Source: a virus
Taxonomy: Duplodnaviria; Caudoviricetes
Strand: one strand, 5' to 3'
DNA length: 64,000 bases
IMG/VR virus record: IMGVR_UViG_3300033120_000868
Span: 79,494-143,493 of that record
Shown: piece after piece, positions 24,221 to 64,000 of the stretch
How positions within the stretch are numbered: position 1 is the first letter of the stretch
Layout: each line of letters begins with the position of its first letter
The notes under the pieces: generated by a model
What the model saw: only the letters and a program-made list of their open reading frames with translations
Told to the model about the DNA's origin: nothing
Databases searched by the model: none
Made by a program: the position numbers and the translations under genes

Positions 24221-24234
24221 TTTTGATTGTTATT

Positions 24235-24871: not shown

Positions 24872-25011
24872 AAATATTCACAAGTTTCTTTTTCTTTATT
24901 ATAAGGGGTTTCAGTAAAATAAGATTGTCTAAATTCATTAGCTTTTGCTGTAAATCTATAACAAGTTTCTTTTAGTGGACAACCTCTTCCTTCACATTTT
25001 GCTCCGTCCAT
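24856..25011 (-). CDS. small Cys-rich protein, 51 aa (not in ORF track)
   Basis: MDGAKCEGRGCPLKETCYRFTA...CEYLWIRQ fills the gap with overlapping start/stop. Confidence 0.65.
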   Translation of the reverse strand: MDGAKCEGRGCPLKETCYRFTAKANEFRQSYFTETPYNKEKETCEYLWIRQ

Positions 25012-52076: not shown

Positions 52077-52095
52077 ATCTCATTATTTTATTTTA

Positions 52096-52127
52096 CAAAT
52101 GTACAAATTTATTTTATATTATCCAAA
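52096..52127 (-). promoter_or_regulatory. Bacteroidota-type promoter
   Basis: TTTG-N20-TACATTTG. Confidence 0.7.
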
Positions 52128-52154
52128 TCTTTTTTAACTTTTTTCGCGAAATTT

Positions 52155-52645
52155 TCATTTTACTGCATAGCTTCGCTTTTACTCCTGCATTACCCTCCTA
52201 CGAGAATACAACCTGAGTTATAGTAGCTAAGGTAATCTACTCAACCTCTTAACCTAAACCATTTCTGCTCCTGCACCTAATTTTATAGGCGAGAGTTTAT
52301 CAATCCTCTCTTTTTCAGTCATTTGATTCGGTGTACTCTTTCGAGAATGCAGTCACTCGTTGTCAATACGTCAGACATTGCGAGGTTTGTGAATCAAACG
52401 TGTTTAGCGGTTCATCTTTCTATTTTTACTCCTTTCTATTATTCTCCCTTATTTTATCCACGCTGTTGTGAAGTTGTTTTGGTGCGGAGTTGAAAACCAA
52501 TTACCGAATGTTGTAAAAATAAAAAACCCTTTGATTAAAAACAGAAAAAGATGCAGAGCTCTCACACATCTACATCTTAAACATTTAAATCAAAGGGTCA
52601 ACCTTTTTATTTTAATGATTTTAGTGGTGAGAGATAAAATCTAAT
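52155..52645 (-). ncRNA. candidate structured non-coding RNA region
   Basis: about 490 bp without ORF, GC-richer, several hairpins, downstream of promoter 52700-52731. Confidence 0.4.
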
Positions 52646-52699
52646 TTTCCGCAATAAAAATAAAAACAGAGAAAAACATATTTCCCCATAATTATACCG

Positions 52700-52731
52700 C
52701 AAATATACAACATCTATTTAACATATCCAAA
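52700..52731 (-). promoter_or_regulatory. Bacteroidota-type promoter
   Basis: TTTG-N20-TATATTTG. Confidence 0.7.
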
Positions 52732-52743
52732 TTAGTTAAATAT

Positions 52744-53059
52744 TTAAGGCGTTTCGCAAAAGAAACCGCTGAAAACAATTACATTTGCATCATCTACTTG
52801 GATATATCTACAAGTACTCCCTCTATACATTTCTAAATCTTCTGTAGGAGTAAGCTGAAAAGAGATTCTTTCACCCATATTACCTAAAGCAATAGCTGAT
52901 ATTAGAAGGGTTGTCGGTTCTATACCAAACTCCTATAAAATCTTCATCCATATTCAACTGTTCATACCCATATTCTGAGTTGTAACAGTTTAAATTCCTT
53001 TCTTCTGTTGAGCAACTTAATGTTAGTAAAGTTAAGCTCAAAAATAGTAGTTTTTTCAT
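52744..53059 (-). pseudogene. lipoprotein gene, apparently frameshifted
   Basis: MKKLLFLSLTLLTLSC lipobox ORF stops after 59 aa; an overlapping frame (EFGIEPTT..MGERISF..FFCETP) continues to 52744. Confidence 0.45.
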
Positions 53060-53244
53060 TTTTCTATTTTTAAAAGTTTACTATAAAGATTATCTATCTC
53101 TTTTATATGATTACTTTTTGAGGTTTTATATACTCTTTTAAATTCTTCATTTGGACAATCATATTGAACTACGGCTTCACTTAAATTACAAGCTCTAAGT
53201 AAAAAATCTAATTGTACTTTTGTTAATGTTATATTTTTATCCAT
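53056..53244 (-). CDS. hypothetical protein
   Basis: ATGA overlap. Confidence 0.6.
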   Translation of the reverse strand: MDKNITLTKVQLDFLLRACNLSEAVVQYDCPNEEFKRVYKTSKSNHIKEIDNLYSKLLKIEK

Positions 53245-53268
53245 TTTACCTATTTTTGCGCGAAAAGA

Positions 53269-53535
53269 TTAAGAAACGGAAGACGAAGTACCTTCAAGAA
53301 ATTCTTCCAAATCAAATTTCTCTTTAGTAACTTTTGCTAATCTTTTAAGCATTAAGTGTTTATATTCTTCACTAATCTTATTAAATACCTCAATACTTTC
53401 TTCTGTTTCTAACTGTTGTAGCCCAAGTAGTACTGACTCTTTAAAGTTTTGTATTTCACTTTGCCTTTCTTTTACCCGCCTTTTTTCAAGCCAAATAATA
53501 AGCCTTAATCTCCAATCTTTAATTTTGTCTGTCAT
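53269..53535 (-). CDS. hypothetical protein
   Basis: operon packing. Confidence 0.65.
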   Translation of the reverse strand: MTDKIKDWRLRLIIWLEKRRVKERQSEIQNFKESVLLGLQQLETEESIEVFNKISEEYKHLMLKRLAKVTKEKFDLEEFLEGTSSSVS

Positions 53536-53537
53536 AT

Positions 53538-53720
53538 TTATTCTCTTTTTAAACCTAAATAAGCCGAAGGTAATGGTAAAGACTTCATTAATAAAATAAT
53601 ATCTTTTTCATCTAATTTCATTTTCTGTCCATCTTTTTCTAAATAGACTGTTAAACCCTTACTCCACTTTTGATACCTTTTTTGTGGTTTTGTTATTGAC
53701 CATGCTTTTAACTCACTCAT
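53538..53720 (-). CDS. hypothetical protein
   Basis: operon packing. Confidence 0.6.
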   Translation of the reverse strand: MSELKAWSITKPQKRYQKWSKGLTVYLEKDGQKMKLDEKDIILLMKSLPLPSAYLGLKRE

Positions 53721-53727
53721 ATATTTC

Positions 53728-53922
53728 TTAATCTTCTAAAATTAATACTATCCCTTGCTCTGTTACTTTATAACCTTTTATTTTTCTATCCATTCTATTA
53801 TACTCCTCTGTTTCTCTTATCGCTCGCTCAAAAGAGATAAAAGAAGTAGAAAAACAACCTTCAAATTCTAATTCTTCATCTGTTAGTAAAGGACTTAATG
53901 ATTTTGTTAAAAATGTTTTCAT
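53728..53922 (-). CDS. hypothetical protein
   Basis: operon packing. Confidence 0.6.
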   Translation of the reverse strand: MKTFLTKSLSPLLTDEELEFEGCFSTSFISFERAIRETEEYNRMDRKIKGYKVTEQGIVLILED

Positions 53923-53923
53923 C

Positions 53924-54241
53924 TTAAAAATAAATTATAGTTTTATATTTTGGTTCACATTCATCTAAACAATAAGTTTCAAAGTTAATTTTGAAATACT
54001 TATCATTTATTTTTACAACAAAAATTTCTTCTTCATTTTCAACTCTGTATTCTTCAATATAATCTTTATCAGCTCCCCAAGACATTACTTCCGTTAAAAC
54101 CCAACATGCTGTGTAATAATCTTCTTTTATTTCTTTAACAAGTTGGTTTTTTGAAACACCTTCATAACCTATAGATTTTAAATTAATCTTGTCCCAATTT
54201 TCTGAAACAAATTTAATTGCTAATTTTGTAACTTCACTCAT
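53924..54241 (-). CDS. hypothetical protein
   Basis: ORF after promoter. Confidence 0.7.
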   Translation of the reverse strand: MSEVTKLAIKFVSENWDKINLKSIGYEGVSKNQLVKEIKEDYYTACWVLTEVMSWGADKDYIEEYRVENEEEIFVVKINDKYFKINFETYCLDECEPKYKTIIYF

Positions 54242-54257
54242 ATTTTCTAATTTTTTA

Positions 54258-54289
54258 CAAAGATATAAATAATATTTGAATTGTGCAAA
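54258..54289 (-). promoter_or_regulatory. Bacteroidota-type promoter
   Basis: TTTG-N20-TATCTTTG. Confidence 0.7.
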
Positions 54290-54328
54290 TAAAAATTCAT
54301 TTTTTTGGCAAAAAAGAATAAAAACAGA

Positions 54329-54589
54329 TTAAAAAACCTCATCTAACTTTATCTGCTCATACCACTGTAAGTTAGAAACATCAACAACTCTCTTCTGCAT
54401 TACAATTAAATCTTTTAATCTTGACAAAGAATACCATTTTCTATTTATCCAATATCCTAAACAATTATTATTATCTTTTAATTCAACTGACTTAGGTATG
54501 TTCGTTATATCAAACAATTGTTTTTTGCGAAAAGAAAAAGTTTTTCTTTCAATAATAAAATAGTTTGAATAAGTTATAATATATTTCAT
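54329..54589 (-). CDS. small hypothetical protein flanking the cassette array (intI position, but not an integrase)
   Basis: 86 aa, GYWINRKWYSL; no tyrosine-recombinase motifs. Confidence 0.65.
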   Translation of the reverse strand: MKYIITYSNYFIIERKTFSFRKKQLFDITNIPKSVELKDNNNCLGYWINRKWYSLSRLKDLIVMQKRVVDVSNLQWYEQIKLDEVF

Positions 54590-54619
54590 TTGTCAAGGTT
54601 TCTTATTAGTGTTTATAAA

Positions 54620-54658
54620 GGTTAGTATAGGTGAGTTTCGCTTAGCCAATAGTTGTAA
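54620..54658 (+). other. putative attI-like primary recombination site
   Basis: GTTGTAA at 54652 matches the TTACAAC end of cassette 1 but has no upstream hairpin arm. Confidence 0.55.
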
Positions 54659-54678
54659 AACAGTTTAGAAAATACTTT

Positions 54679-55209
54679 ATGAAAATAAAAGAATCAGATA
54701 TAGAAGTTATAGATTTCATATTAAACTTAAGCCTATCTAAAGAAGTTTCTTTACAAGATTTACTTGAAAATAATATAATTGATTCACAACAAGGCGAGTT
54801 TCCTGAAATAAACTTATGGTACAATCCGAAAGATGAATTTGCTAGATATTTAAAAATACTTGAAAAATACAATTTATGTAACATAGTACGCTATATTGGT
54901 GCAGAAACTGCTATTAAAAATACAAACACTTCAATAACTCTCAACAGAGGTGGTTTTAAGCCAATATTTGAAAAAATACAACTTGATGAAGAAAAAGAAC
55001 AAATTGAATTTGAAAAATCTAAAATAGATTTAAAACTTAATAAATGGCTCTTAAAGACTAAATGGCTTCCACACTTTATTACTTTCATTTCTTTACTATT
55101 CGCTGTTTACGTTTATTTCGATTCTAAAAACGATTCAAAAAAATTAGAAGAACGAATAGAAAAGTTAGAATCGAAAATACCAATCCCGAAAAATGAGTCC
55201 AAAAAATAA
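54679..55209 (+). CDS. cassette 1 gene: membrane protein, canonical cassette orientation
   Basis: 176 aa, one TM near C-terminus flanked by coiled coils; only credible + strand gene after 14.8 kb. Confidence 0.8.
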   Translation: MKIKESDIEVIDFILNLSLSKEVSLQDLLENNIIDSQQGEFPEINLWYNPKDEFARYLKILEKYNLCNIVRYIGAETAIKNTNTSITLNRGGFKPIFEKIQLDEEKEQIEFEKSKIDLKLNKWLLKTKWLPHFITFISLLFAVYVYFDSKNDSKKLEERIEKLESKIPIPKNESKK

Positions 55210-55264
55210 CCTTTGTTTCTTTGGGACAATCTTTAGACAATGCATACTTAATAATCTTAATCAT
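55124..55264 (-). CDS. small antisense membrane peptide in cassette 1 (46 aa, not in track)
   Basis: MIKIIKYALSKDCPKETKVIFWTHFSGLVFSILTFLFVLLIFLNRF. Confidence 0.4.
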   Translation of the reverse strand: MIKIIKYALSKDCPKETKVIFWTHFSGLVFSILTFLFVLLIFLNRF

Positions 55265-55330
55265 AATAAAATAATTTTAATACTTGACACTTAACAAAGG
55301 CGGACAAGTTAAACCTTAATAAAACCGATT

Positions 55331-55466
55331 TTACAACAGCGGTTTGTTTCAAGTGGCGGTTTAGTGATAATCCGAAAACGCCGTTGTAAAATTTAATAAT
55401 TAGTTTATATTTGTAATGGCTTGGTGCTGAAATCGCCACCTGAAAACAAGCCACAGAACGTTATAT
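55331..55466 (+). repeat. attC-like site 1
   Basis: TTACAAC..GGTTTGTTTCAAGTGGCG / CGCCACCTGAAAACAAGCC..GTTATAT. Confidence 0.85.
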
Positions 55467-55472
55467 GATAGC

Positions 55473-55718
55473 TTACTCAACTTTGTGGCTAAAAAGTTCA
55501 TTGTAATATTTTTCAGCTCTTTCTTCTTGTGTTATGTTATATCCGTAAAGTTCCCAATCAGCACCATCGTTGAAAGAAGTTTTTATTTGCTCTTTTTCTT
55601 TATTAATTTTATCTTCTACCATATCAATAATTAAATTAACAGTGGTTTTAATAAAAGGATTTTCGACTATTTTAGAAACTTCTTCTAATTCATTAAGTAA
55701 TTCTTGCATTGCTGTCAT
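55473..55718 (-). CDS. cassette 2 gene, phage-type small protein
   Basis: MTAMQEL..KEKEQI...F.DG..AEKYYNE. Confidence 0.75.
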   Translation of the reverse strand: MTAMQELLNELEEVSKIVENPFIKTTVNLIIDMVEDKINKEKEQIKTSFNDGADWELYGYNITQEERAEKYYNELFSHKVE

Positions 55719-55741
55719 AATAATTATGTTTAAAAGCCATC

Positions 55742-55874
55742 ATATAACAATGCATTGTAGCAATTGTGGTTTAAGGCTTAATTAATAATTTGTTTTTACT
55801 TGGTTAGTTTTAGTCTTAATTTGAAGCATTGTGCAAGTCTAACCACAACTGACTACAATGCTTTAACGTTATGT
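55742..55874 (+). repeat. attC-like site 2
   Basis: ATATAAC..GCATTGTAGCAATTGTGGTT / AACCACAACTGACTACAATGC..GTTATGT. Confidence 0.88.
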
Positions 55875-56180
55875 GATATTTTCCAAAACGACTAAATCAG
55901 AAATATCATCTAAATAATAAACAGTTTGTTCTCCGTCATACCATTGCGGTTCTATAGGTACATTTAGACTAATTGATAATTTGTATTCTTCTGTATTATT
56001 ATATTTTGTTTGTGGTGGGTATATAAAACTTATAATTCCAGTAAACCATTCGTTTCTTTCTTTTTCTTTGAATGCCACAACAGTATTTTCTTTACAGTTA
56101 ATCAAAACATCACATAACAGTGGTTTTGACTTATTGCCGTTTTCGGCTTCATTTAATGTTGGTTTTGTACTTTCTGACAT
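55869..56180 (-). CDS. cassette 3 gene (starts inside attC3)
   Basis: probable start MSESTK in attC loop; stop = TTA of R box. Confidence 0.7.
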   Translation of the reverse strand: MSESTKPTLNEAENGNKSKPLLCDVLINCKENTVVAFKEKERNEWFTGIISFIYPPQTKYNNTEEYKLSISLNVPIEPQWYDGEQTVYYLDDISDLVVLENIT

Positions 56181-56246
56181 TGTTTTTAATTTAAAGTTGG
56201 TCTTGTATTTAATCGGCAACAAGACAAAGCCACAGGAGCGTTATGC
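56112..56246 (+). repeat. attC-like site 3
   Basis: ACATAAC..TGGTTTTGACTTATTGCCG / CGGCAACAAGACAAAGCCA..GTTATGC. Confidence 0.88.
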
Positions 56247-56252
56247 ACAATA

Positions 56253-56717
56253 TTATAGAATACCATACAAATCATAATGATTTTCCAAAAACCAATTATA
56301 GTGTTCTGCAATCATATTTTTATTATATCCTAAAAAAGTAGTGATTTGTGCATGACCTCCTGTATCTCTGTTTGGTATATTTATGGTCAATGAACCATTT
56401 TTACCCTTTTTCCAAGTTATTTTATGAAAATATAAATCTTCTCTTTTTCCTAAAATATATCTTGAAAACTTACTTAATTGTTGTTGAACTAGAAAATCAT
56501 TAATATTTTTTAACTCAGGTATATACCCTAAATCTATAATATTTTTAGCTGAATCTCCGTTTTCAAAGATAAATCTTCCATTATATCCAATAAGTTTCAA
56601 TCTACCATATTGACAATTAAAATAAATCCCGTAAGGAAGATATTTAAGTAAAATACTGTGCATAACAGCGGTTTTGTCGCATTGTGGTACTTGGGTATTT
56701 TTTGAAAGTTCAGTCAT
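56253..56717 (-). CDS. cassette 4 gene (starts inside attC4)
   Basis: 154 aa; YLPYG..., WFLENHYDLYG. Confidence 0.75.
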   Translation of the reverse strand: MTELSKNTQVPQCDKTAVMHSILLKYLPYGIYFNCQYGRLKLIGYNGRFIFENGDSAKNIIDLGYIPELKNINDFLVQQQLSKFSRYILGKREDLYFHKITWKKGKNGSLTINIPNRDTGGHAQITTFLGYNKNMIAEHYNWFLENHYDLYGIL

Positions 56718-56795
56718 AATTTTAAAATTTAGTTATTATTTGTTAAGTTTGGTCTTAAATCGCCACAACGACGACAAAGCCACAGGGCGTTATCA
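56660..56795 (+). repeat. attC-like site 4
   Basis: GCATAAC..GGTTTTGTCGCATTGTGG / CCACAACGACGACAAAGCC..GTTATCA. Confidence 0.88.
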
Positions 56796-56981
56796 CTCAG
56801 CTTGTAGAACACCTAAATCATCGATGTTTAGTATTGTAAATCTATCTTGCTTTTCAAATAATTGTTCTCCAACTTCTTGTGCAATTTCTTTTTCTGAAAA
56901 GCGTAAAGTTTTTCTATTAGCACCATATAACGCTTTTTTAGTGTCTAAATCAATAATAATCCATTTTCTTTCTTTTTTCAT
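56793..56981 (-). CDS. cassette 5 gene
   Basis: 62 aa filling the cassette. Confidence 0.7.
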   Translation of the reverse strand: MKKERKWIIIDLDTKKALYGANRKTLRFSEKEIAQEVGEQLFEKQDRFTILNIDDLGVLQAE

Positions 56982-57006
56982 CTTGTTTGTATTTAAAAAG
57001 CCGAAG

Positions 57007-57138
57007 TGATAACATACGCTAACCGCTATTCAGGCTTTAGGTTAAATTTAAAGTGTGTTTTGTGTCTGTAAGATTTGTAATAATCCGAAATTTCAGTCCT
57101 TACTTTTCCTGAACATCGGTTAGCGTCCGCCGTTATGT
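57007..57138 (+). repeat. attC-like site 5
   Basis: TGATAAC..ACGCTAACCGCTATTCAGG / CCTGAACATCGGTTAGCGT..GTTATGT. Confidence 0.88.
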
Positions 57139-57139
57139 A

Positions 57140-57355
57140 TCATTTTTTAAATTGACATTTTTCGTATATTTTTGCAAGTGGTGTTATAAAATCTTTACCA
57201 GTAAATAAATATGGTATAGTTATTACAGCAGTATACGGTATATTTACAAGCAAAAATATTAACCACAGCATCATTTCATAAAAACGATACATAACAACAG
57301 ATATACTCAATTTTGAGTTCTGTGTTTCATTCAAGTTTTCTTCTTTTTCAATCAT
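57140..57355 (-). CDS. cassette 6 gene, small membrane protein (starts inside attC6)
   Basis: hydrophobic core. Confidence 0.65.
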   Translation of the reverse strand: MIEKEENLNETQNSKLSISVVMYRFYEMMLWLIFLLVNIPYTAVITIPYLFTGKDFITPLAKIYEKCQFKK

Positions 57356-57418
57356 TTTATTTATTATTTAAATTATTACTATTTAATTCAAAACTAAGTA
57401 TATCTGCAATCGTTAACC
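57289..57418 (+). repeat. attC-like site 6
   Basis: ACATAAC..CAGATATACTCAATTTTGAGTT / AATTCAAAACTAAGTATATCTG..GTTAACC. Confidence 0.85.
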
Positions 57419-57658
57419 ACAATTGCATATCAGAAGTTTAATAGACGCTATTGTATTTGATTCTGGCTTTTCAAATTCAGTTACAAATTCCAATCCTTTT
57501 TTATCTAATTCATCAAACAAAAAGTTGTCAATATCTTGGTAAGAATTAAACCATTTCATCCCGTTTCTATTGCTTTTTTCAAGTTCGGATAAAGCAACTG
57601 TGGTTAACACAGGTTTTGTGCTATTGCTTGGCTTGTTGTTTTCTGAATGTTTATTCAT
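57413..57658 (-). CDS. cassette 7 gene (starts inside attC7)
   Basis: stop = TTA of R box. Confidence 0.7.
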   Translation of the reverse strand: MNKHSENNKPSNSTKPVLTTVALSELEKSNRNGMKWFNSYQDIDNFLFDELDKKGLEFVTEFEKPESNTIASIKLLICNCG

Positions 57659-57736
57659 AATCTGTAATTTTTAGTGTTTAATTTAATGTTTTAGTTTTCT
57701 TTTACGCAACAGACACAAAGCCTGAGGACGTTATAA
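57602..57736 (+). repeat. attC-like site 7
   Basis: GGTTAAC..CAGGTTTTGTGCTATTGC / GCAACAGACACAAAGCCTG..GTTATAA. Confidence 0.88.
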
Positions 57737-57746
57737 GAAATAGCTA

Positions 57747-57974
57747 CTAATCGTTTTCAAAATCAAATTCTTCTTCAATAATATCTAATAGACTTGTGGC
57801 TATATCTCCGTTATGTATTCTAAAAGCTATCTTTTTAGCTTCAGAAACTATATATTCAGCGTCATCTTCGCTTATAAGTTCAAAAACCGCTGGGTCTGTA
57901 ATGTCATTTGCAATTAAAATAGCTTGACACCATCTTTTCGCTATTCTTTTTAAAACTAATTTATCTTTTACCAT
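57747..57974 (-). CDS. cassette 8 gene
   Basis: probable start MVKDK (frame open back to 58058 inside attC8). Confidence 0.7.
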   Translation of the reverse strand: MVKDKLVLKRIAKRWCQAILIANDITDPAVFELISEDDAEYIVSEAKKIAFRIHNGDIATSLLDIIEEEFDFEND

Positions 57975-58003
57975 AACTTTTAATTTAAATTTACCGCTAC
58001 TTC

Positions 58004-58081
58004 TTATAACAGGTGTTTGTAAATACCAGCCGAATATACTATGCGTGTAGGCTGGCATCTACAAGCACCAAAACGTTAGCA
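58004..58081 (+). repeat. attC-like site 8 (short, 78 bp)
   Basis: TTATAAC..GGTGTTTGTAAATACCAGCC / GGCTGGCATCTACAAGCACC..GTTAGCA. Confidence 0.88.
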
Positions 58082-58091
58082 AACATTGTTA

Positions 58092-58421
58092 CTATTTCGT
58101 TAAAAAGAAATCATATCCAACAAACGGCAAAGAAGCTCTAAATTTAGTATCTTTTGGAACATTCCATTTTTTTATCAATCTAACAACTGATTTTAATGAA
58201 TAAGCATCGTTAAAACCATCGTGTGACATAGAATAATACACAGATGTATTTCCTGTTTTTTCCCATTCTCCTGTTTGGGTATTAAACCATAAATTATTTT
58301 CAACTGGTTCTATCCAAAATGGTCTTTTCATTCTTCTTTTAGAACCATCTTCATATTTAGAATGAATTGTAACGCTTTTAAAAATCCTTTGCCCTTTAGG
58401 TTTACTTGAAATAATTTTCAT
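58092..58421 (-). CDS. cassette 9 gene
   Basis: probable start MKIISS. Confidence 0.7.
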   Translation of the reverse strand: MKIISSKPKGQRIFKSVTIHSKYEDGSKRRMKRPFWIEPVENNLWFNTQTGEWEKTGNTSVYYSMSHDGFNDAYSLKSVVRLIKKWNVPKDTKFRASLPFVGYDFFLTK

Positions 58422-58453
58422 AATATTTTTTATTTTAAATACCCACAACGATT

Positions 58454-58588
58454 TGCTAACAGCATATTTATTCAATTGTGGCTTTTGGGTTAATTAAATG
58501 TTTATTGTGTGTTTGTAATGTTAATTTTTAAATTGATAGTTCGTTTTGTGCTTATCCACAACTGAAATAAATACCCAAAACGTTAGTG
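58454..58588 (+). repeat. attC-like site 9
   Basis: TGCTAAC..TATTTATTCAATTGTGG / CCACAACTGAAATAAATA..GTTAGTG. Confidence 0.85.
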
Positions 58589-58927
58589 ACAATTGCAGAC
58601 AAGACGTTCAATAAGATAATCACTATCTTTTTTAACAATAGGAATTATCAAATTTTTAATCTGTTTTTTTTGTTTTTTATTCATTTTAGGATTTACTGGT
58701 TGTATTATTTCCCCCGTATTAATCATAATTAATATTCCTTTGTCCTTATGTTGTACAGAAGAATCTAATGATTTCCCATTGAACCATTTTGCAGAAAAAC
58801 ATTCAGGATTTGATTTTAAAATTTCAATTACCTTTTCTATAAATACTTGTTCGTGAGCATCCAAAGGAGAACAACTGTCACTAACAGCGTGTATAAAAAA
58901 TGGCTTTTTTAGGCTTAATTTAAACAT
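58583..58927 (-). CDS. cassette 10 gene (starts inside attC10)
   Basis: stop = TTA of R box. Confidence 0.7.
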   Translation of the reverse strand: MFKLSLKKPFFIHAVSDSCSPLDAHEQVFIEKVIEILKSNPECFSAKWFNGKSLDSSVQHKDKGILIMINTGEIIQPVNPKMNKKQKKQIKNLIIPIVKKDSDYLIERLVCNCH

Positions 58928-59010
58928 AATTTTGTGTTTTTATAATTAGTAATAATTCAATAATTTAGGCGTACTTGCACGCCACTTCTTATACACGCAA
59001 AACGTTATAG
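58879..59010 (+). repeat. attC-like site 10
   Basis: CACTAAC..GCGTGTATAAAAAATGGC / GCCACTTCTTATACACGC..GTTATAG. Confidence 0.88.
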
Positions 59011-59030
59011 TTAATGGCTACAAATTGTTT

Positions 59031-59429
59031 TTACATACCTATATTTTCAATTCCAAGTAACTCAATAAGTATATGTATCTCTTTACTACCCCATTCGTTT
59101 TCTATATTAAATATAATTTCTTTGTCAGATAAAATTTCTTGCATATAATTATCCTTTACTTTTACACCCCACCAATTACCGTCTGATGCAAGAGTTAAAA
59201 TATCTGAATTATCACGAATTGTTTTAATCTTATCATAAAAAGACATTTGGTTAAATCTTTTAGCCATTTCTACGTATTGCTCTAAAGTGAATTTTCTTTT
59301 ATAATTATTGTTCGTGCTTTTAGCTCTCATATAATCATCATATTCTCTAGTACTCATACCTCTTGGGTCTTGTGTATCATAAAAATCACTTGCTTTAACA
59401 TCTCTGTAATCAATTCTTTTGTTTTTCAT
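59031..59429 (-). CDS. cassette 11 gene, paralog of backbone gene 14832-15095
   Basis: shared T.EQY....RFN.MSF..K..TI..N..I.....DG. Confidence 0.75.
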   Translation of the reverse strand: MKNKRIDYRDVKASDFYDTQDPRGMSTREYDDYMRAKSTNNNYKRKFTLEQYVEMAKRFNQMSFYDKIKTIRDNSDILTLASDGNWWGVKVKDNYMQEILSDKEIIFNIENEWGSKEIHILIELLGIENIGM

Positions 59430-59457
59430 AATTTCAGTTTTTAAAAACCGCCACTAA

Positions 59458-59590
59458 CTATAACAGTAGTTTGTAGCAATGGCTGGCTTGTTGTTTAATT
59501 TAATGTTTTTGGCTTATCGGTATTGTAGTTTTTAAACCAAAACTACTCGCTTACTTGCACGCCACTGCAACAAGCTACAAAACGTTAGGC
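59458..59590 (+). repeat. attC-like site 11
   Basis: CTATAAC..GTAGTTTGTAGCAATGGC / GCCACTGCAACAAGCTAC..GTTAGGC. Confidence 0.88.
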
Positions 59591-59821
59591 GATATGCCCT
59601 ACACCCTTACTGTCAGCAAATTGGTATCCGTGTCTTTGATTACTATATTTCTTTTCTCGTCCTTGCATACCATCTGTCCATACTTTACCACAACACTTGC
59701 AACGATAGGCACGTCTCCCATCAAATGCTCTACCTTTTTCAGGGTTAGTTGTTTGACAAGAAGCACATCGCCTAACATCGGCTTTGTTCAATACCTTATC
59801 TTCTGTATTATCGTTTTTCAT
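59585..59821 (-). CDS. cassette 12 gene, Zn-ribbon protein (starts inside attC12)
   Basis: CASC...YRCKCCG; stop = TTA of R box. Confidence 0.7.
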   Translation of the reverse strand: MKNDNTEDKVLNKADVRRCASCQTTNPEKGRAFDGRRAYRCKCCGKVWTDGMQGREKKYSNQRHGYQFADSKGVGHIA

Positions 59822-59892
59822 GTTATTTAAATTTTAAAAATTACGTTTAGTTTTCATAAGTCGGCACTAAACAAAGCCGAGAACCGTTAGCA
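59770..59892 (+). repeat. attC-like site 12
   Basis: GCCTAAC..TCGGCTTTGTTCAATACC / GGCACTAAACAAAGCCGA..GTTAGCA. Confidence 0.88.
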
Positions 59893-59896
59893 GTAA

Positions 59897-60139
59897 TTAA
59901 TCCTCGAACTTAACAAATTTGAATTTATACCCACCTTTCTTAATTCCAAACTTCTCACACCATCTTTCAAACCAATTTGATTTAATGATTATTATTTGCC
60001 ATTTTTCTGCATAATCTAACGCATTTTGTTCTGTAATTAATCCATCTTTTTCAAGGCGTTCTAAAACTAAGTCTTTTACTTGATTTGCGTTTAGTGTATA
60101 TTCTTCTAAAGAAATTAACATTCCATCCATTTGTGCCAT
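59897..60139 (-). CDS. cassette 13 gene
   Basis: 80 aa filling the cassette. Confidence 0.7.
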   Translation of the reverse strand: MAQMDGMLISLEEYTLNANQVKDLVLERLEKDGLITEQNALDYAEKWQIIIIKSNWFERWCEKFGIKKGGYKFKFVKFED

Positions 60140-60161
60140 AATATTTGTATTTTATAACTAC

Positions 60162-60293
60162 TGCTAACAACGGTTATACAATAGTTGGGTTAATTGTTTA
60201 ATTTAAAGTCTGTTTTGTGCTTTTAAAATCTGTGATAAATCAAAAGTTAAGGAGTACCAACCCCAACCATCGTATAGCCGTCGAACGTTATGT
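60162..60293 (+). repeat. attC-like site 13
   Basis: TGCTAAC..ACGGTTATACAATAGTTGGG / CCCAACCATCGTATAGCCGT..GTTATGT. Confidence 0.88.
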
Positions 60294-60299
60294 GCCATT

Positions 60300-60509
60300 T
60301 TAAGACACACTATCCTTCAACTTTTGCAGTTCGACAATTAAGTCATCTACTTGTTGAATTAAGTTCATTTTGGCTGACCAATCATTTGCTCCATATCCTG
60401 AAAATTCAGCGCGGAAATGACCCCAAGCGTGATTTTTAGAACTTAATTCGATTTCGGCTTCACAACTTTGAGCCTTTTGTTTACCATCGTTTCTTAATTT
60501 TATTTCCAT
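60300..60509 (-). CDS. cassette 14 gene
   Basis: 69 aa filling the cassette. Confidence 0.7.
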   Translation of the reverse strand: MEIKLRNDGKQKAQSCEAEIELSSKNHAWGHFRAEFSGYGANDWSAKMNLIQQVDDLIVELQKLKDSVS

Positions 60510-60538
60510 TTTATTGTTGATTTATTAATAAAAACGGC

Positions 60539-60634
60539 ACATAACAAGGGTTTTGCGTAATAGCCCTATCAAGTGTCGTGGTTAATTTTAAGTTTTTACT
60601 AAGGGCTACTACGCAAAGCCCCGATACGTTATCA
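60539..60634 (+). repeat. attC-like site 14
   Basis: ACATAAC..GGGTTTTGCGTAATAGCCCT / AGGGCTACTACGCAAAGCCC..GTTATCA. Confidence 0.88.
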
Positions 60635-60859
60635 CTCAGCTTTTGACGAACTAAATAAATAAGCTAATTTCTCTGGAATAAGCATTTTTACTTTCACACT
60701 TGTTCCATTCCAAAAACTTTCTTCTACGTCATACGACTGAATTATTCCGTTGTGGTTTTCTATTTTTTTTTCTAAATCACGTGCTTGAGATTTTGTTTTA
60801 CATACTGCTGAAAAAAGTAAATATTTAATTCCGTTTACTTCATAAATTAATTGTTCCAT
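60632..60859 (-). CDS. cassette 15 gene
   Basis: 75 aa filling the cassette. Confidence 0.7.
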   Translation of the reverse strand: MEQLIYEVNGIKYLLFSAVCKTKSQARDLEKKIENHNGIIQSYDVEESFWNGTSVKVKMLIPEKLAYLFSSSKAE

Positions 60860-60880
60860 TTTGTGTGAATTAAGCCGAAG

Positions 60881-61012
60881 TGATAACAGTGGTTACACAA
60901 TATTGCCACTTCTGGAGTTATTTAATGTTGTTTTTGTACTTGTTTTGTTGGTTGTTTAATCGAATATTTTCGCTTACTTTTGGCAACATCGTGTAGCCAC
61001 AAAACGTTATAA
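60881..61012 (+). repeat. attC-like site 15
   Basis: TGATAAC..GTGGTTACACAATATTGCCA / TGGCAACATCGTGTAGCCAC..GTTATAA. Confidence 0.88.
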
Positions 61013-61249
61013 CTCATTTTTAGAAAGAGCTATGTTTACAATTGATATTGCTTTTTTAATCTGAGATATACTTTTAAATTCAGGCGTTATGTCAATTAAT
61101 TCTTCATCAGTGAGTATTTCACATAAATAATCATATTCTTCATCATTTATTCTCCAAAGTTGTTTATACATATCATCAAACGCATCTGTAATACCGCCAC
61201 ATCCTTTGTAAACTATATCTGTTCTATTTTTCCTTTCAAATCGTGTCAT
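61007..61249 (-). CDS. cassette 16 gene
   Basis: stop = TTA of R box. Confidence 0.7.
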   Translation of the reverse strand: MTRFERKNRTDIVYKGCGGITDAFDDMYKQLWRINDEEYDYLCEILTDEELIDITPEFKSISQIKKAISIVNIALSKNEL

Positions 61250-61261
61250 AATTAAAACGAG

Positions 61262-61394
61262 TTATAACAGTGGTTTTGCTCAATGGCTGTTTTTGGCAAA
61301 ACTTATACACTGTTTTGTGTTTGTAAAATTTGTTTTTAATTCAATAATTTAGGCTTGCTTTTCAGCCACTAAGCAAAGCCACAGGACGTTAACA
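61262..61394 (+). repeat. attC-like site 16
   Basis: TTATAAC..GTGGTTTTGCTCAATGGCTG / CAGCCACTAAGCAAAGCCAC..GTTAACA. Confidence 0.88.
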
Positions 61395-61441
61395 GATATG
61401 GTATGAAGTAGATACCGCATACCATTCTGAAAACTACCTTT

Positions 61442-61810
61442 TTATTTTTTAAACAACCAATTTGATTTTTCTGTACTTTTAAATTCAGATAAATAATTTT
61501 GAAATTGTTCATAGCTACAATCTAATATTTCTTTAGCATCAATTGAATGAGAATAATCAATATTATCTAATGATTCCAAAGTGAACAACATATTGTCTTG
61601 CCATTTAACACCATCAATAGACAATAAAACTTCTGACCTAATTTGTCTTTGATAGACAATTTTATAACCTTCCCACCACTTTGAAAATCTATTTTCAAGT
61701 TCTTCTTGTTCTGAACATTCTAAATTTGAAGCATCGCTCGATGATTGCAAAAATAAATCTAACGGATTTAATTTTGCTTGAATTTCTGTTGTATTAATTG
61801 TTGTTTTCAT
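61442..61810 (-). CDS. cassette 17 gene C
   Basis: 122 aa. Confidence 0.65.
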   Translation of the reverse strand: MKTTINTTEIQAKLNPLDLFLQSSSDASNLECSEQEELENRFSKWWEGYKIVYQRQIRSEVLLSIDGVKWQDNMLFTLESLDNIDYSHSIDAKEILDCSYEQFQNYLSEFKSTEKSNWLFKK

Positions 61811-61841
61811 ATTTTTTTAGCACTTATCCTTGCAATTGGTT

Positions 61842-62156
61842 TTAATTATTTAAAAATTCAGATGCTTGTATTATTTCATATTCTTTTTCATATTCAGGGC
61901 TTGTTATTCTACCACAATTTACATAAGTAATATTGCCGTCTATACTTAATGAAAAAATACTTTGTTGTGTTGTAGAAAAAAAGGGGTCATAAAAAATAGG
62001 TCTAATATTTCCTATTTGTTCACGATACCAATCTCTATGCCAAGACATTCTTTTACACTTATCATTTGGGTTAATATCTTTTCTTCTTTCCCATTCTTCA
62101 AAAGAATTAAACTGAATTAATATTTTTTTATCTTCAAAATTTTCGAGTTTTTTCAT
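61842..62156 (-). CDS. cassette 17 gene B
   Basis: 104 aa. Confidence 0.65.
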   Translation of the reverse strand: MKKLENFEDKKILIQFNSFEEWERRKDINPNDKCKRMSWHRDWYREQIGNIRPIFYDPFFSTTQQSIFSLSIDGNITYVNCGRITSPEYEKEYEIIQASEFLNN

Positions 62157-62160
62157 AATA

Positions 62161-62436
62161 CTAATAAGTTAAGTTAGAAAAAGTTTTACCTTCGTTGTTT
62201 ACGATATAGTTTTGTTCATCTTTCCATAAAGGATAAGTTTCTTTTGCATCTTCTGAAATAACAAAAGCATAACAACCACCTACTTCAATTTTTTCTTGAC
62301 CTTCTAATTGAAAAAAGTCAACATACATTTTAAAAAAAGCTTCTTCGTTTTTTTCTTTTCTAATAACTGAATAGCTTTCTCCTAAGTTCTGATTGAACTC
62401 CATTTTTACACTTGTAATTTTTCTTAATGTGTACAT
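62161..62436 (-). CDS. cassette 17 gene A
   Basis: 91 aa; MYTLR.I...N..LG..Y...YIVN..GKTF. Confidence 0.7.
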   Translation of the reverse strand: MYTLRKITSVKMEFNQNLGESYSVIRKEKNEEAFFKMYVDFFQLEGQEKIEVGGCYAFVISEDAKETYPLWKDEQNYIVNNEGKTFSNLTY

Positions 62437-62508
62437 AAATTCATATATTTATTTATTGCCTACTCTATTAGCTTTTCGGCTTCCGCTATATTTTAAAATA
62501 ACCACATC

Positions 62509-62641
62509 TGTTAACACTGCATTGTAGCAATTGTGGGTTAAGGCTTAATTAATAATTTGTTTTTTACTTGTTTTGGTTAGTTTTAAATCGAAACATTGTG
62601 CTAGTATAACCACAACTGACTACAATGCTTTAACGTTAGGT
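62509..62641 (+). repeat. attC-like site 17 (body nearly identical to attC2)
   Basis: TGTTAAC..GCATTGTAGCAATTGTGG / CCACAACTGACTACAATGC..GTTAGGT. Confidence 0.88.
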
Positions 62642-62647
62642 GCAATG

Positions 62648-63136
62648 CTACGACCACACCGCATTTTGATACTTCTTTTCATATTTGACAAATTTGTGAA
62701 TGAATCCGTAATCGTGGCAGACAAATTTATTACCTATCCAACCAAAATTATCTGCCTTGACATCTGTAAAGAAATAAGGCACTTTTTTTGGGCGTTCTTT
62801 ATCTAACTGTTTAGTCCGTTCCATTATTAATACTTTACCGTTAGGACTGCACCAGTGAATCGGAGCAAACCATTCTTTTACCCAAGCAAGATTTCCTTTT
62901 AATCCTTGAATTTCATCCCAAAGTAAAAATTCAGCGATGTTGCAATCTGTACTGTTTGGTTCAACTTTTACAACCATTTTATTTGGGTTCATATTGAACT
63001 CGTAAACACTTCTGTAAGAACCACTACCCAATTTTTCACCACAAAGAGTAAGTATTAAATCTGTATTTACATCTTGTAATTTACTTAAAGTAGAAACTTC
63101 ATCTACATTATTTAATCTATTTGTTAATCTAATCAT
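62648..63136 (-). CDS. cassette 18 gene, minimal protein-kinase-like protein
   Basis: LGSGSYRSVY, VVK, E, LIME, DVKADNFG, HDYG. Confidence 0.75.
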   Translation of the reverse strand: MIRLTNRLNNVDEVSTLSKLQDVNTDLILTLCGEKLGSGSYRSVYEFNMNPNKMVVKVEPNSTDCNIAEFLLWDEIQGLKGNLAWVKEWFAPIHWCSPNGKVLIMERTKQLDKERPKKVPYFFTDVKADNFGWIGNKFVCHDYGFIHKFVKYEKKYQNAVWS

Positions 63137-63174
63137 TTTTTAAGGTTTAAAACCGTTTAACAAAAAAGCACTGC

Positions 63175-63307
63175 ACCTAACAAGGTATTGCCAAAAGTGG
63201 GGCTTTCGTGCTTTCTATTATCTTCTGTACTCATATTTAACATTTGTTCTTTTAATTAACTTTGGTGGTTTAATGCCCCACCTTCGGCAATACCCAAAAC
63301 GTTATAA
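63175..63307 (+). repeat. attC-like site 18
   Basis: ACCTAAC..GGTATTGCCAAAAGTGGGGC / GCCCCACCTTCGGCAATACC..GTTATAA. Confidence 0.88.
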
Positions 63308-63313
63308 GCCATT

Positions 63314-63514
63314 TTAACGACCACGTAACTCATTACGTTCTTTAACTTCTATTTCGTCTGTATAATCTTCAAACAATAGCTTGCCAATTTTATCCCAAGA
63401 AACAAAAGTTTCCTTTGATGGCATTCTATTTGGTTTCAATCTTGCAGGAATATTTGTTTTTAAAATTACTCCTTCTTCTTTAGCTGTATAGCCTGTAATA
63501 ATTACTTTTTGCAT
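63314..63514 (-). CDS. cassette 19 gene
   Basis: 66 aa filling the cassette. Confidence 0.7.
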   Translation of the reverse strand: MQKVIITGYTAKEEGVILKTNIPARLKPNRMPSKETFVSWDKIGKLLFEDYTDEIEVKERNELRGR

Positions 63515-63559
63515 TGTTTTTAAATTAAATTGTTAAGCCAAACACGAATAAAAAACGGC

Positions 63560-63655
63560 TTATAACAGTGGTTTGGCAAAATACCGCCACAAGCCTTTGT
63601 ACTAAATTTGAACATTGTGCAAGGCGGCACTTCGCCAAGCCACCAAACGTTAGCG
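63560..63655 (+). repeat. attC-like site 19
   Basis: TTATAAC..GTGGTTTGGCAAAATACCGCC / GGCGGCACTTCGCCAAGCCAC..GTTAGCG. Confidence 0.88.
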
Positions 63656-63856
63656 GTAATGCTTTGATAAATACTTTTCGACAATATCTATCATTTGTAA
63701 TTCGTCATTGTATATATCGTAAAATCCATCAACATCTTCTAAATGTGGTCTGCTGGTTAATTTTTTAACTATTTCTTTAGCGTGGTAATTAGCACTAACC
63801 ATAACACCAGTTTTGCAAGATTGCTTGTTTTGTGATTTTTTGGAAACTTTAGTCAT
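63650..63856 (-). CDS. cassette 20 gene (starts inside attC20)
   Basis: stop = TTA of R box. Confidence 0.65.
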   Translation of the reverse strand: MTKVSKKSQNKQSCKTGVMVSANYHAKEIVKKLTSRPHLEDVDGFYDIYNDELQMIDIVEKYLSKHYR

Positions 63857-63931
63857 AATTTTAAGTGTATTTTGTATTTGTTAATTTTAGGTTTTTAGTT
63901 CGCAACCTCGCAAAGCCAAAAATCGTTATAG
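63799..63931 (+). repeat. attC-like site 20
   Basis: CCATAAC..TTTTGCAAGATTGC / GCAACCTCGCAAAG..GTTATAG. Confidence 0.8.
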
Positions 63932-63937
63932 CAAATG

Positions 63938-64000
63938 CTAGAAATCAATATCCGTTACAATAAATGTTTCATTACAATCTTCGCAAGTAATTTCTATATC
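63938..64000 (-). CDS. cassette 21 gene, C-terminal fragment (Zn-ribbon-like)
   Basis: ...DIEITCEDCNETFIVTDIDF* runs off the window end. Confidence 0.55.
   Translation of the reverse strand, partial: DIEITCEDCNETFIVTDIDF

Follow-up and report, generated by a model that had tools for sequence, protein, structure and literature searches.

How a phage genome comes to hold a regular array of small genes separated by hairpins, and which enzyme could move them, are the questions raised by one end of a 143,493-bp virus contig. We analysed the final 64 kb of this flavobacterial phage genome (64,000 nucleotides, hereafter the window). Our results indicated that its array is probably an orphan, lacking a recombinase of its own, within an integron-like cassette system of Bacteroidota and their phages. 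This system is widespread and almost undescribed, and has a Xer-type enzyme instead of an integron integrase. Apart from CALINs of 2-3 sites, we found no paper describing it.

A cassette array in phage DNA

The final 9.4 kb of the contig consist of small gene cassettes joined by hairpin recombination sites (Table 1). The array crosses the contig end and resumes at the contig start, up to approximately base 1050, giving about 22 cassettes. Exonuclease and PD-(D/E)XK nuclease genes lie to its left and a denV-like glycosylase gene to its right; a second array, made of two cassettes, is found elsewhere in the same genome.

The location of the array at the contig end, and the repetition of an internal stretch by that end, are what a misjoin of host DNA to a phage contig could produce. 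Such an assembly chimera is barely credible: phage genes flank the array on both sides, its genes have the phage and not the bacterial orientation (see below), and similar arrays are embedded in the genomes of plaque-purified phages. An independent 5,076-bp Logan contig also agrees with 52000-55761 at every base and joins the phage backbone to the array. An earlier note, made from the sequence alone, had placed the array in contiguous phage DNA, and the flanking genes and the bridging contig bear this out.

Table 1 Features of the cassette array (window positions; hairpin sites run from AAC to GTT)
Feature	Position	Strand	Remarks
attI-like insertion end	54575..54654	+	box TTATTAGTGTTTATA; junction CCAATA|GTTG
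86-aa ORF in the position of the recombinase gene of related phages	54329..54589	-	no Pfam family
Main cassette array	54652..64000	+	20 complete units and start of 21st
Unit starts 1-11	54652, 55460, 55868, 56240, 56789, 57132, 57412, 57730, 58075, 58582, 59004
Unit starts 12-21	59584, 59886, 60287, 60628, 61006, 61388, 62635, 63301, 63649, 63925
First-cassette gene	54679..55209	+	176 aa, C-terminal membrane helix; sole gene sense to sites
Three-gene cassette	61388..62637	-	ORFs 61442-61810, 61842-62156, 62161-62436
Repeated stretch	63645..64000	+	identical to contig bases 539-894
Hairpin site 1	55335..55462	+	R1 match
Hairpin site 2	55746..55870	+	R1 match
Hairpin site 3	56116..56242	+	R1 match
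Hairpin site 4	56664..56791	+	R1 match
Hairpin site 5	57011..57134	+	R1 match
Hairpin site 6	57293..57414	+	R1 match
Hairpin site 7	57606..57732	+	R1 match
Hairpin site 8	58008..58077	+	short form, 70 nt; R1 match
Hairpin site 9	58458..58584	+	R1 match
Hairpin site 10	58883..59006	+	R1 match
Hairpin site 11	59462..59586	+	R1 match
Hairpin site 12	59774..59888	+	R1 match
Hairpin site 13	60166..60289	+	R1 match
Hairpin site 14	60543..60630	+	short form, 88 nt; R1 match
Hairpin site 15	60885..61008	+	R1 match
Hairpin site 16	61266..61390	+	R1 match
Hairpin site 17	62513..62637	+	R1 match
Hairpin site 18	63179..63303	+	R1 match
Hairpin site 19	63564..63651	+	short form, 88 nt; R1 match
Hairpin site 20	63803..63927	+	degenerate R'' flank (4/7); R1 match

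Hairpin sites conserved in structure

The 20 regularly spaced, imperfect hairpins described in the earlier note were all found where it had placed them within 54652-64000. Measured from AAC to GTT, the sites are 70-131 nt long; 16 of the 20 fall between 122 and 131 nt, and the rest measure 70, 88, 88 and 115 nt. On the + strand, each reads TAAC, 1 nt, stem, AT-rich loop, stem, 5 nt and GTTA, the first stem being approximately 10 bp long with a T.G at pair 5 and followed by a second stem before the loop. TAAC and GTTA were invariant among sites. Compensatory changes occurred in 13 of the 14 stem arm pairs, and paired cells amounted to 88.7%, against 30-40% in a control with the partner slid. 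Features of attC-type sites were therefore present, namely an imperfect inverted repeat, AAC/GTT cores and a structure kept more than the sequence, whereas the unpaired spacers (1 nt and 5 nt on the two arms) set these sites apart from classical attC. Searches of Rfam gave no match to them at gathering thresholds.

A covariance model made from the window sites (R1) scored every one of them, at 54-131 bits. Run on the contig, related phages and bacterial genomes, as had been proposed, it detected three sites in the second array of the same genome, which had been left out of model building, and hundreds more in other Bacteroidota phages and chromosomes, with 13 in a distant phage (G001) and 322 in 80 IMG/VR loci. 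Far from being confined to this phage, the array belongs to a very large family.

Cassettes that match their own ends

Units extend from one G|TT to the next and measure 276-1247 bp. In 15 of the 20 window cassettes, the seven variable bases by GTT are complementary at 7/7 positions to the far end of their own cassette; four cassettes reach 6/7 and one 4/7. Compared as a control with the opposite flank of their hairpin, these bases mostly gave 2-3/7. The earlier note had stated that a cassette starts with the reverse complement of its own end and not of its neighbour's. This holds at six or more of the seven bases in 19 of 20 cassettes, and the three pairs of ends quoted as examples are exact. 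Pairing between the ends covers exactly 10 bp, next to which come a fixed C.A mismatch and an A-T pair. The same rule was obeyed by 91 of 104 cassettes from 40 loci, with the same-hairpin control again at 2-3/7.

Each unit was also said to hold one small gene closed by a hairpin, with a single three-gene exception. The gene counts were correct, including that exception (61388-62635), and the order was not, since the hairpin precedes its own gene. Array genes all lie on the minus strand, except that of the first cassette, which is sense to the sites as in bacterial arrays. Across the site family, genes were antisense to their sites by 275 to 4 in phages and sense by 159 to 16 in bacteria. Phage cassettes are inverted compared with classical ones, the hairpin belonging to the gene downstream of it. 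Classical integrons have mostly promoterless ORFs, each ahead of its own attC, under one shared promoter at attI; this gene order was found in bacterial arrays of the family and not in phage arrays.

None of the window cassette genes has a known family. The first-cassette gene matched no Pfam or PHROG family and has more than 70 homologues; at locus L273, a cassette homologous to the first one, whose R box is identical (GTTGTAAAACAG / TTTTACAAC), comes first after attI, beside a 267-aa recombinase. The commonest cargo in relatives is DNA methyltransferases. The phage may benefit from a turnover of early accessory and anti-defence genes, as judged from these relatives because no window gene has a known family.

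Cassette exchange at G|TTA

The cultured Flavobacterium phages lillamy9-1, 9-6 and 9-7 are approximately 100% identical and differ in cassettes. Comparison of these sister phages, an approach suggested by the earlier note, revealed differences in both cassette order and content: a 439-bp unit had relocated to the first position, one was replaced and one deleted. In lillamy9-7, the insertion lies at the position equivalent to the first array position of the window. All junctions fall at CG|TTA, and the insertion target lacks a hairpin on one of its sides and shares only about 5-7 nt.

Metagenomes contained further exchanged units. At least 10 isolated segments common to unrelated loci extend from GTT to the next GTT. 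Approximately five others stop at the R'' side and not at the next GTT, which could reflect a second crossover point or hairpin turnover. Near-identical copies of window cassettes 11, 17 and 20 were present in contigs of three other studies, in other contexts and with edges at GTT; one of them, the three-gene unit (cassette 17), has different surroundings in a contig from a groundwater metagenome, where its edges are at 61387 and 62645. In one sequencing run cassette 16 followed hairpin 19; Logan contig joints with a short side are unreliable. Excised circles, which Logan contigs are unable to reveal, were not seen. Within the assembly itself, the identity between the repeated stretch and contig bases 539-894 starts at the R' GTT, which means that one cassette has two different left neighbours.

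Another route to such variation is known from T4-type phages, in which modules flanked by promoter/terminator stem-loops (PeSL) are shuffled by general homologous recombination. PeSL cassettes share with our array small ORFan genes, a hyperplastic early region in a large phage genome, conserved stem-loop flanks, and insertions, deletions and replacements between sister phages (PMC2839356, PMC4122927). Their exchange also yields circular by-products (PMC2839356, PMC4122927), described as mini-circles (PMC2839356). We nevertheless consider it very unlikely that the window sites are repeats of this type. PeSL combine a promoter and a terminator, and their exchange is ascribed to homologous recombination without a dedicated recombinase (PMC2839356, PMC4122927), whereas the present system has site-specific junctions, covarying ends and a linked recombinase. 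We found neither a gene-sense promoter with a terminator nor exchange anywhere in the repeat: the Bacteroidota -7 motif TAnnTTTG occurs in gene sense at only 9 of 408 phage sites (2%), and every junction falls at an identical G|TTA, even in the lillamy insertion. Variable own-end complementarity plays no part in homologous recombination, a dedicated tyrosine recombinase lies at the array end in relatives, and bacteria carry the same sites with the opposite gene orientation.

A XerA-like recombinase in relatives

The earlier note had seen no integrase with the array and recommended searching the whole contig for a tyrosine recombinase. A six-frame search with PF00589 across all 143 kb found none at E<=1, in agreement with its claim, and phage G001 has no recombinase either. 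The gene is present in relatives. All three bacterial genomes examined (G002, G003 and G005) encode a recombinase 0.5-3 kb from the insertion end of the array, and homologues occupy this end in 11 of 120 phage loci, plus L273.

These array-linked proteins are 266-370 aa long, and their closest relatives are XerA, XerC and XerD; the best family was NF040815 (XerA / integron integrase) and the best solved structure XerA (5hxy). Against the IntI model TIGR02249 they scored 146-203 bits (cut-off 265), with matches in two stretches that skip model positions ~180-250, the IntI-specific insertion. This additional domain, which characterises integron integrases, was found neither in this genome nor in the enzymes of relatives. 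As the relatives' enzyme is XerA-like and lacks the insertion, this is not a classical IntI system. The proposal that IntI integrates the cassettes at G/TT therefore stands for the crossover point, seen in sister-phage rearrangements and metagenome edges, and not for the enzyme.

The attI-like box recurs (TTTTATTAGTGTT), together with ATATAATA|GTTA, in nine phage loci that encode a recombinase, where both occupy the interval from the recombinase start to the first cassette. The box of the window is identical to that of locus L021 at 15 of 15 bases, and its junction is present. The distance between the two is about 17 nt longer than in L021, a departure from the spacing in recombinase-bearing phages, and the recombinase gene is absent. 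The attI-like end includes the start codon (CAT on the + strand) of the 86-aa ORF, which showed no similarity to phage recombinases (best E 0.007-0.3, scattered fragments).

The missing recombinase, the altered box spacing with an unrelated ORF in the enzyme's place, and one degenerate R'' flank would all suit a frozen relic, built when an ancestor had the recombinase and now made of fixed early genes between decaying sites. This is unlikely, though it deserves some weight. Decay is at odds with the 19 of 20 cassettes that keep 6-7 of their 7 variable bases complementary and with the R1 scores. Fixation is at odds with the cassette that has two left neighbours, with the near-identical single cassettes in three other studies, and with the lillamy phages, which rearrange without an annotated integrase. 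Activity of the orphan array in this particular lineage is less certain all the same, as no recombinase was found in a genome that looks complete.

A model for cassette exchange

We propose that the unit of exchange is one small gene (once three) with a hairpin site of ~125 nt, and that site-specific crossover at G|TTA, on the hairpin's 3' side, both excises and inserts it. Excision would presumably proceed via a circle, in which the two ends of the cassette could pair into an R box of 10-12 bp. The substrate is probably the folded, single-stranded site, and insertion would favour the attI-like end. The most likely enzyme to act on this phage, as we infer from related arrays, is the XerA-like tyrosine recombinase located at this end in them. 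If turnover of the array continues, the activity would have to come in trans, from a host chromosomal platform or a co-infecting phage, since the phage lost its recombinase. The earlier note had suggested a host IntI-like enzyme acting in trans. Chromosomes of Flavobacterium and other Bacteroidota do carry the site family beside a tyrosine recombinase that could act in this way; its identity as IntI did not hold, the enzyme being XerA-like.

On a broader reading our judgement is evenly balanced: a single exchange system run by XerA-like enzymes may serve two mirror-image pools, a bacterial one with the gene before the hairpin and a phage one with the gene behind it and inverted. Its arrays would range from two cassettes to a chromosomal tract of ~500 kb, and recombinase-less phages would borrow the host enzyme during infection. 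If so, such phages swap early and anti-defence genes, e.g. orphan methyltransferases, with a host enzyme, and one machinery feeds both sides of the phage-host arms race.

Relation to Xer systems, integrons and phage CALINs

The CTX phage, an IMEX, offers the Xer enzymes of its host a hairpin of folded single-stranded DNA, and the linked recombinases have XerA, XerC and XerD as closest sequence relatives. Unlike Xer/dif systems, the array has no dif-like site, and Xer enzymes are not known to run multi-cassette arrays that include an attI-like site. The window has the ~125-nt hairpins and the own-end rule; the XerA-like recombinase at the attI-like end occurs only in relatives (G002, G003, G005, 11 phage loci and L273).

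Sedentary chromosomal integrons and CALINs resemble the array in several respects: small cassettes, imperfect palindromes with an AAC/GTT core, structure conserved over sequence, own-end complementarity, crossover at G|TT and site sequences homogeneous within a lineage. In related arrays, a likely further feature in common with integrons is insertion at a non-hairpin attI-like site adjoining a tyrosine recombinase gene. If the sites are taken as attC-type, 20 of them within 9.4 kb and no integrase correspond to a CALIN (at least two attC, no integrase). Here, however, the R box has 10-12 bp rather than 7, the relatives' recombinase is XerA-like and the phage has none, genes are inverted with the hairpin upstream of their own gene, and recombinase and cassettes are co-directional, not divergent.

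The strict version of this comparison, true attC sites on which a canonical IntI from the host acts, in the manner of proteobacterial integrons and CALINs, draws on the TAAC/GTTA core, own-end complementarity and G|TT crossover, and on recombination of a site of Polaribacter phage P12002L by IntI1 in E. coli (PMC9892861). We give it little credence: the linked recombinases fall short of the TIGR02249 cut-off, skip the IntI insertion and match XerA best, the 1-nt and 5-nt spacers and inverted genes differ from classical cassettes, and IntegronFinder surveys recorded almost no integrons in Bacteroidetes (PMC9024848).

The closest precedent is that of Qi et al. 2023, who reported that, in a virulent flavobacterial phage, predicted attC flank orphan DNA methyltransferase genes, and that IntI1 mediated attC x attI1 recombination for the P12002L region (PMC9892861). 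Their phage CALINs have 2-3 sites per phage and were interpreted as classical attC; the site family, the Xer-like recombinase, large arrays and gene inversion were not described (PMC9892861). R1 matched just one other site in P12002L. The methyltransferase region of this phage, the same as in their assay, contains short hairpins of the same build, which obey the own-end rule.

Structure of the hairpin sites and pairing of cassette ends

All 20 hairpins of the array were found at the positions where the earlier note had placed them. On the + strand, each hairpin opens with nnnnnnnTAAC and a single base (A). A stem of about 10 bp follows, then a small internal loop, a second stem of 4-7 bp and an AT-rich loop; both stems then return, and five unpaired bases lead to GTTAnnnnnnn. 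The distance from AAC to GTT was 122-131 nt in 16 of the 20 hairpins and 70, 88, 88 and 115 nt in the others. Arm sequences varied among sites with the pairing kept: two-sided changes occurred in 13 of 14 predicted arm pairs, and 88.7% of cells were paired in the window hairpins versus 30-40% when the partner column was slid.

The claim that each cassette begins with the reverse complement of its own end rather than that of its neighbour was also borne out. At the left end of a cassette, GTT and the next seven bases are exactly the reverse complement of the 10 bases that close its own right end with AAC; a fixed C.A mismatch and then an A-T pair come next. The seven variable bases matched 7/7 in 15 cassettes, 6/7 in four and 4/7 in one; as a control, the two flanks of one hairpin mostly gave 2-3/7 matches. 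The cassettes at window positions 56789 and 60628 have an identical 14-nt start, GTTATCACTCAGCT, and a common far end, CGAAGTGATAAC; their proteins (62 and 75 aa) showed no similarity. The types of paired cassette ends (R boxes) seem to be re-used among unrelated cassettes.

The array is part of a phage genome

The window is the final 64 kb of a single IMG/VR virus contig of 143,493 bp (30% G+C), classed as linear by IMG/VR and rated 100% complete by CheckV. In agreement with the proposal that the array is embedded in contiguous phage DNA, the DNA to its left carries phage genes, and the array continues rightward past the contig end and stops near contig base 1050, directly before a denV-like glycosylase gene. 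An assembly chimera of array and phage backbone was argued against by a 5,076-bp Logan contig from run X22, which spans 52000-55761 with zero differences and bridges the two. A Megablast search of GenBank phages with 24 kb of the backbone gave no close relative, and no viral loci related via the denV-like neighbour were found. The final 356 bases of the contig are repeated near its start; either a cassette is duplicated, or the assembly has taken in a population variant.

Features of the phage contig and of related loci
Feature	Location	Strand	Remarks
ORF, 1,908 aa	window 418-6144	+	no PHROG family; adjoins the 2,079-aa virion structural protein
Virion protein, 2,079 aa	left of array
DNA transfer protein, endonuclease VII, primase, DNA polymerase, DnaB-type helicase	left of array
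Thymidylate synthase, ribonucleotide reductase-like protein, PolB-type exonuclease, PD-(D/E)XK nuclease	left of array
Main array	window 54652-64000
ORF of three-gene cassette	window 62161-62436		no Pfam family
Rfam DUF805b RNA motif	window 62457-62489	-	48.7 bits, gathering score 35.6; just upstream of the preceding ORF, same cassette
Terminal repeat	window 63645-64000		identical to contig 539-894
Partial hairpin and one extra cassette	contig (L001) 1-538		ORF 142-423
Second array	contig 23,387-25,075 (L002 3387-5075)	other strand	outside the window; 3 hairpins, 2 cassettes
Flavobacterium sedimenticola array			at least 20 sites; recombinase beyond array end
F. wongokense array			at least 41 sites; recombinase beyond array end
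Bacteroidota bacterium SSA2 (G005, a MAG chromosome) array	~500 kb	one strand	at least 140 scored sites; recombinase beyond array end
The same SSA2 (G005) tract, by coordinates	CP058707.1, 3,478,164-3,986,346		2,451 first-look candidates; ends beside a 371-aa XerA-like recombinase
Four successive cassettes (L270)	JAYSFV010000004.1 (bacterial contig), 3922-6483		proteins of 160-163 aa

Cassettes are exchanged as gene-plus-hairpin units

The comparison of cassette order between sister phages that the earlier note had suggested was possible in cultured Flavobacterium phages. The plaque-purified isolates lillamy9-1, 9-6 and 9-7 belong to one species, are ~100% identical outside the array and show three array differences, each involving single units. 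In lillamy9-7, a 439-bp unit, made of one gene and its right-hand hairpin as read on the model strand (the window + strand of the hairpin), was gone from its usual place, and a 100% identical copy headed the array. This insertion had TGTA/GTTATAAGC as its target, with no hairpin to the left. The other events were the swap of one unit for another and the precise deletion of one unit. All junctions lay at CG/TTA, 3' of a hairpin. The unit that moves therefore extends from G/TT through the gene and the next hairpin up to the next G.

The same boundaries were found in unrelated viral loci, where at least 10 isolated common segments (85-98% identity, 200-1,000 bp) extended from GTT to the next GTT; about five stopped just after AAC instead. 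Within the window contig, one cassette had two different left neighbours, with identity beginning at GTT. For the cassette beginning GTTAGCGGTAATGC, the cassette at the contig start is the alternative neighbour on the left. Logan contigs from other studies, of freshwater, aquatic and groundwater samples, also carried single window cassettes in foreign contexts, bounded at 59003/59587, 61387/62645 and 63649, and in one Logan run hairpin 19 was directly followed by cassette 16; joints with short sides (20-28 nt) were left out of the evidence. Collectively, these comparisons demonstrated site-specific exchange of gene-plus-hairpin units at G/TTA, with insertion at an attI-like end. The main alternative, that the array is a frozen relic, is less probable, as it fits poorly with its intact sites and with the variant contexts in which window cassettes occur.

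In freshwater metagenome run X1, an identical copy of window hairpin 16 led, in a loose end behind window 61393, into the beginning of a cassette also present in lillamy9-1 (L141, ~7014). Through this joint, the cassette pools of the window and of cultured Flavobacterium phages are linked.

Related sites are widespread in phages and Bacteroidota

A covariance model built from window-type sites, also proposed in the earlier note, recovered all of its 21 input sites. It further found three sites absent from the model elsewhere on the contig, as a second array in which the own-end rule is kept, the orientation is opposite to that of the main array and both cassettes contain two convergent genes. 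The R box of one of these cassettes, GTTAGCAGTA, recurs at window 59886 and on G001, the contig of a distant phage. The exonuclease of G001 is only 44% identical to that of the window phage, and its 13-site array keeps the own-end rule. Likeness between the arrays of the two phages was confined to the hairpins (up to 83% identity), and no genes were common to both.

A degenerate arm pattern matched at least 120 IMG/VR contigs and at least 120 Bacteroidota genome contigs. Simple Python scans for AAC...GTT arm matches gave mostly false positives; the covariance model took their place, together with an nhmmer profile that found 142 of the 150 covariance-model hits. The covariance model identified 322 sites in 80 viral loci (the first 80 of at least 120), and in 40 of these 80 loci the own ends matched at 6-7 of 7 bases in 91 of 104 cassettes. 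Bacterial arrays showed a 6-7/7 own-end peak, absent from the control, in a quick re-count with loose anchoring and a bimodal result. BLAST detected the hairpins in 64 GenBank phage records, including Baltic Flavobacterium phages (Nilsson et al. 2020), phage 11b, F. psychrophilum phage 2A and Cellulophaga phages; repeats or hairpins are not mentioned in Nilsson et al. 2020.

Sites are built alike in phages and bacteria, with 1- and 5-nt spacers dominant in both. On the model strand, stem pair 5 was a T.G wobble in 161/326 phage sites and 165/215 bacterial sites, and the G.T to A.C ratio was 237:66 in phages and 194:36 in bacteria. Gene polarity, however, was opposite. The longest cassette ORF was antisense to the oriented site in 275 cases versus 4 on viral contigs (95 loci versus 0), whereas it was sense in 159 versus 16 on bacterial contigs (60 loci versus 2). 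In bacterial arrays the gene therefore precedes its hairpin, as is classical, and the recombinase lies upstream and points the same way; phage arrays have the hairpin upstream of its own gene and the recombinase downstream. In the window, only the gene of the first cassette is sense to its site. By analogy with classical attC, cleavage would affect the strand complementary to the model strand (5'-..TAA/C, five unpaired bases, stem..), which is the coding strand in phages. A gene-sense promoter in phage hairpins was unsupported: the Bacteroidota -7 motif was found almost only on the other strand, which is itself T-rich.

The array-linked recombinase is XerA-like

As the earlier note had reported for the window, no integrase was found: the whole contig, translated in six frames, had no PF00589 match at E<=1, and tblastn found no match to array-linked recombinases in this phage genome. 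A tyrosine recombinase was located 0.5-3 kb past the same array end in all three bacterial genomes examined. Homologues (37-44% identity, ~266 aa) occupied the corresponding position in 11 of the 120 viral loci covered (among at least 120) and on ENA contig L273. If continuous, the SSA2 (G005) tract would rank with the largest known cassette arrays.

The suggestion that an IntI-type enzyme acts on these sites held for the presence of a tyrosine recombinase at related arrays and failed for its type. Judged by sequence, the array-linked recombinases are XerA-like and not IntI. Their best NCBIfam model was NF040815 (187-228 bits), and they scored 146-203 bits with the integron-integrase model TIGR02249, below its cut-off of 265. 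The TIGR02249 alignment fell into two stretches, skipping model positions ~180-250, the place of the IntI-specific domain. The nearest solved structures were XerA (5hxy, 4a8e), before VchIntIA (2a3v), which also aligned in two stretches. Lillamy gp001 (381 aa), which adjoins the array end, was rejected as a recombinase candidate, having no Pfam family and lacking conservation at other arrays.

Nine phage loci with a recombinase have 55-60 nt between its start codon and the first G/TT, a stretch that contains a conserved box, TTTTATTAGTGTT, and a junction, ATATAATA/GTTA. The left end of the window array retains a start codon, TTATTAGTGTTTATA (15/15 to locus L021) and AATA/GTTG, the box-to-junction distance being ~17 nt greater than in the loci with a recombinase. 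An unrelated 86-aa reading frame occupies the place of the recombinase; it had no significant recombinase similarity and hence is no recognisable remnant. The first cassettes of the window and of L273, the latter adjacent to a recombinase, have a common R box (GTTGTAAAACAG / TTTTACAAC) and a homologous gene. We take these features to mean that the window array descends from a platform with a recombinase, the gene for which was later lost.

Proposed working and relation to known systems

We propose that the folded single-stranded hairpin would be the recombination substrate, with a XerA-like recombinase as the likely catalyst. The intermediate would be circular, both cassette ends forming a 10-12-bp R box, which would explain the covariation of cassette ends. 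For the window phage, the enzyme would have to be supplied by the chromosomal platform of the host or by a co-infecting phage. Integrons would share this working; compared with them, the present system has another spacer geometry, another R-box length and, in phages, another gene polarity, and the integrase test that defines integrons gave a negative result.

Integrons are viewed as bacterial devices. IntegronFinder surveys of Bacteroidetes reported only In0 elements and one complete integron (PMC9024848), and the one phage survey, which covered 10,705 genomes, reported 17 CALINs with 2-3 sites each (PMC9892861). One of these CALINs surrounds methyltransferase genes of Polaribacter phage P12002L (PMC9892861), a region in which we found short hairpins of the present build that keep the own-end rule. 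The IntI1-dependent recombination described in PMC9892861 probably involved a member of the present site family, the match being at the level of the region. The nearest phage analogue, the PeSL cassettes of T4-like phages, uses homologous recombination between promoter-terminator repeats (PMC2839356). An array of ~22 cassettes in a large virulent-type phage stands against the reported near-absence of integrons from Bacteroidetes and the rare 2-3-site remnants reported in phages. The enzyme linked to such arrays is no IntI. The integron principle either has two origins or far exceeds the IntI clade in age and breadth. The single-cassette moves between near-identical cultured Flavobacterium phages make the system directly testable.

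Cassette cargo

No Pfam family was assigned to the window cassette genes (62-176 aa), and no homologues of their proteins were found in ~260 fetched loci. ORF starts within hairpins are doubtful: for cassette ORFs 3, 4 and 8, tblastn matches at the N-terminus covered only hairpin-encoded stretches, and these N-terminal extensions are probably spurious. Among at least 120 viral loci, the commonest cassette gene was an orphan N6/N4 DNA methyltransferase (51/120 loci, up to five per array), which points to rapid turnover of anti-restriction genes.

The equal sizes of the four L270 proteins, one of which is a homologue of the window first-cassette protein, suggest that these cassettes are tandem paralogues. 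Cassettes close by code for a putative AbiC and for nucleoside 2-deoxyribosyltransferase/QueC-like proteins.
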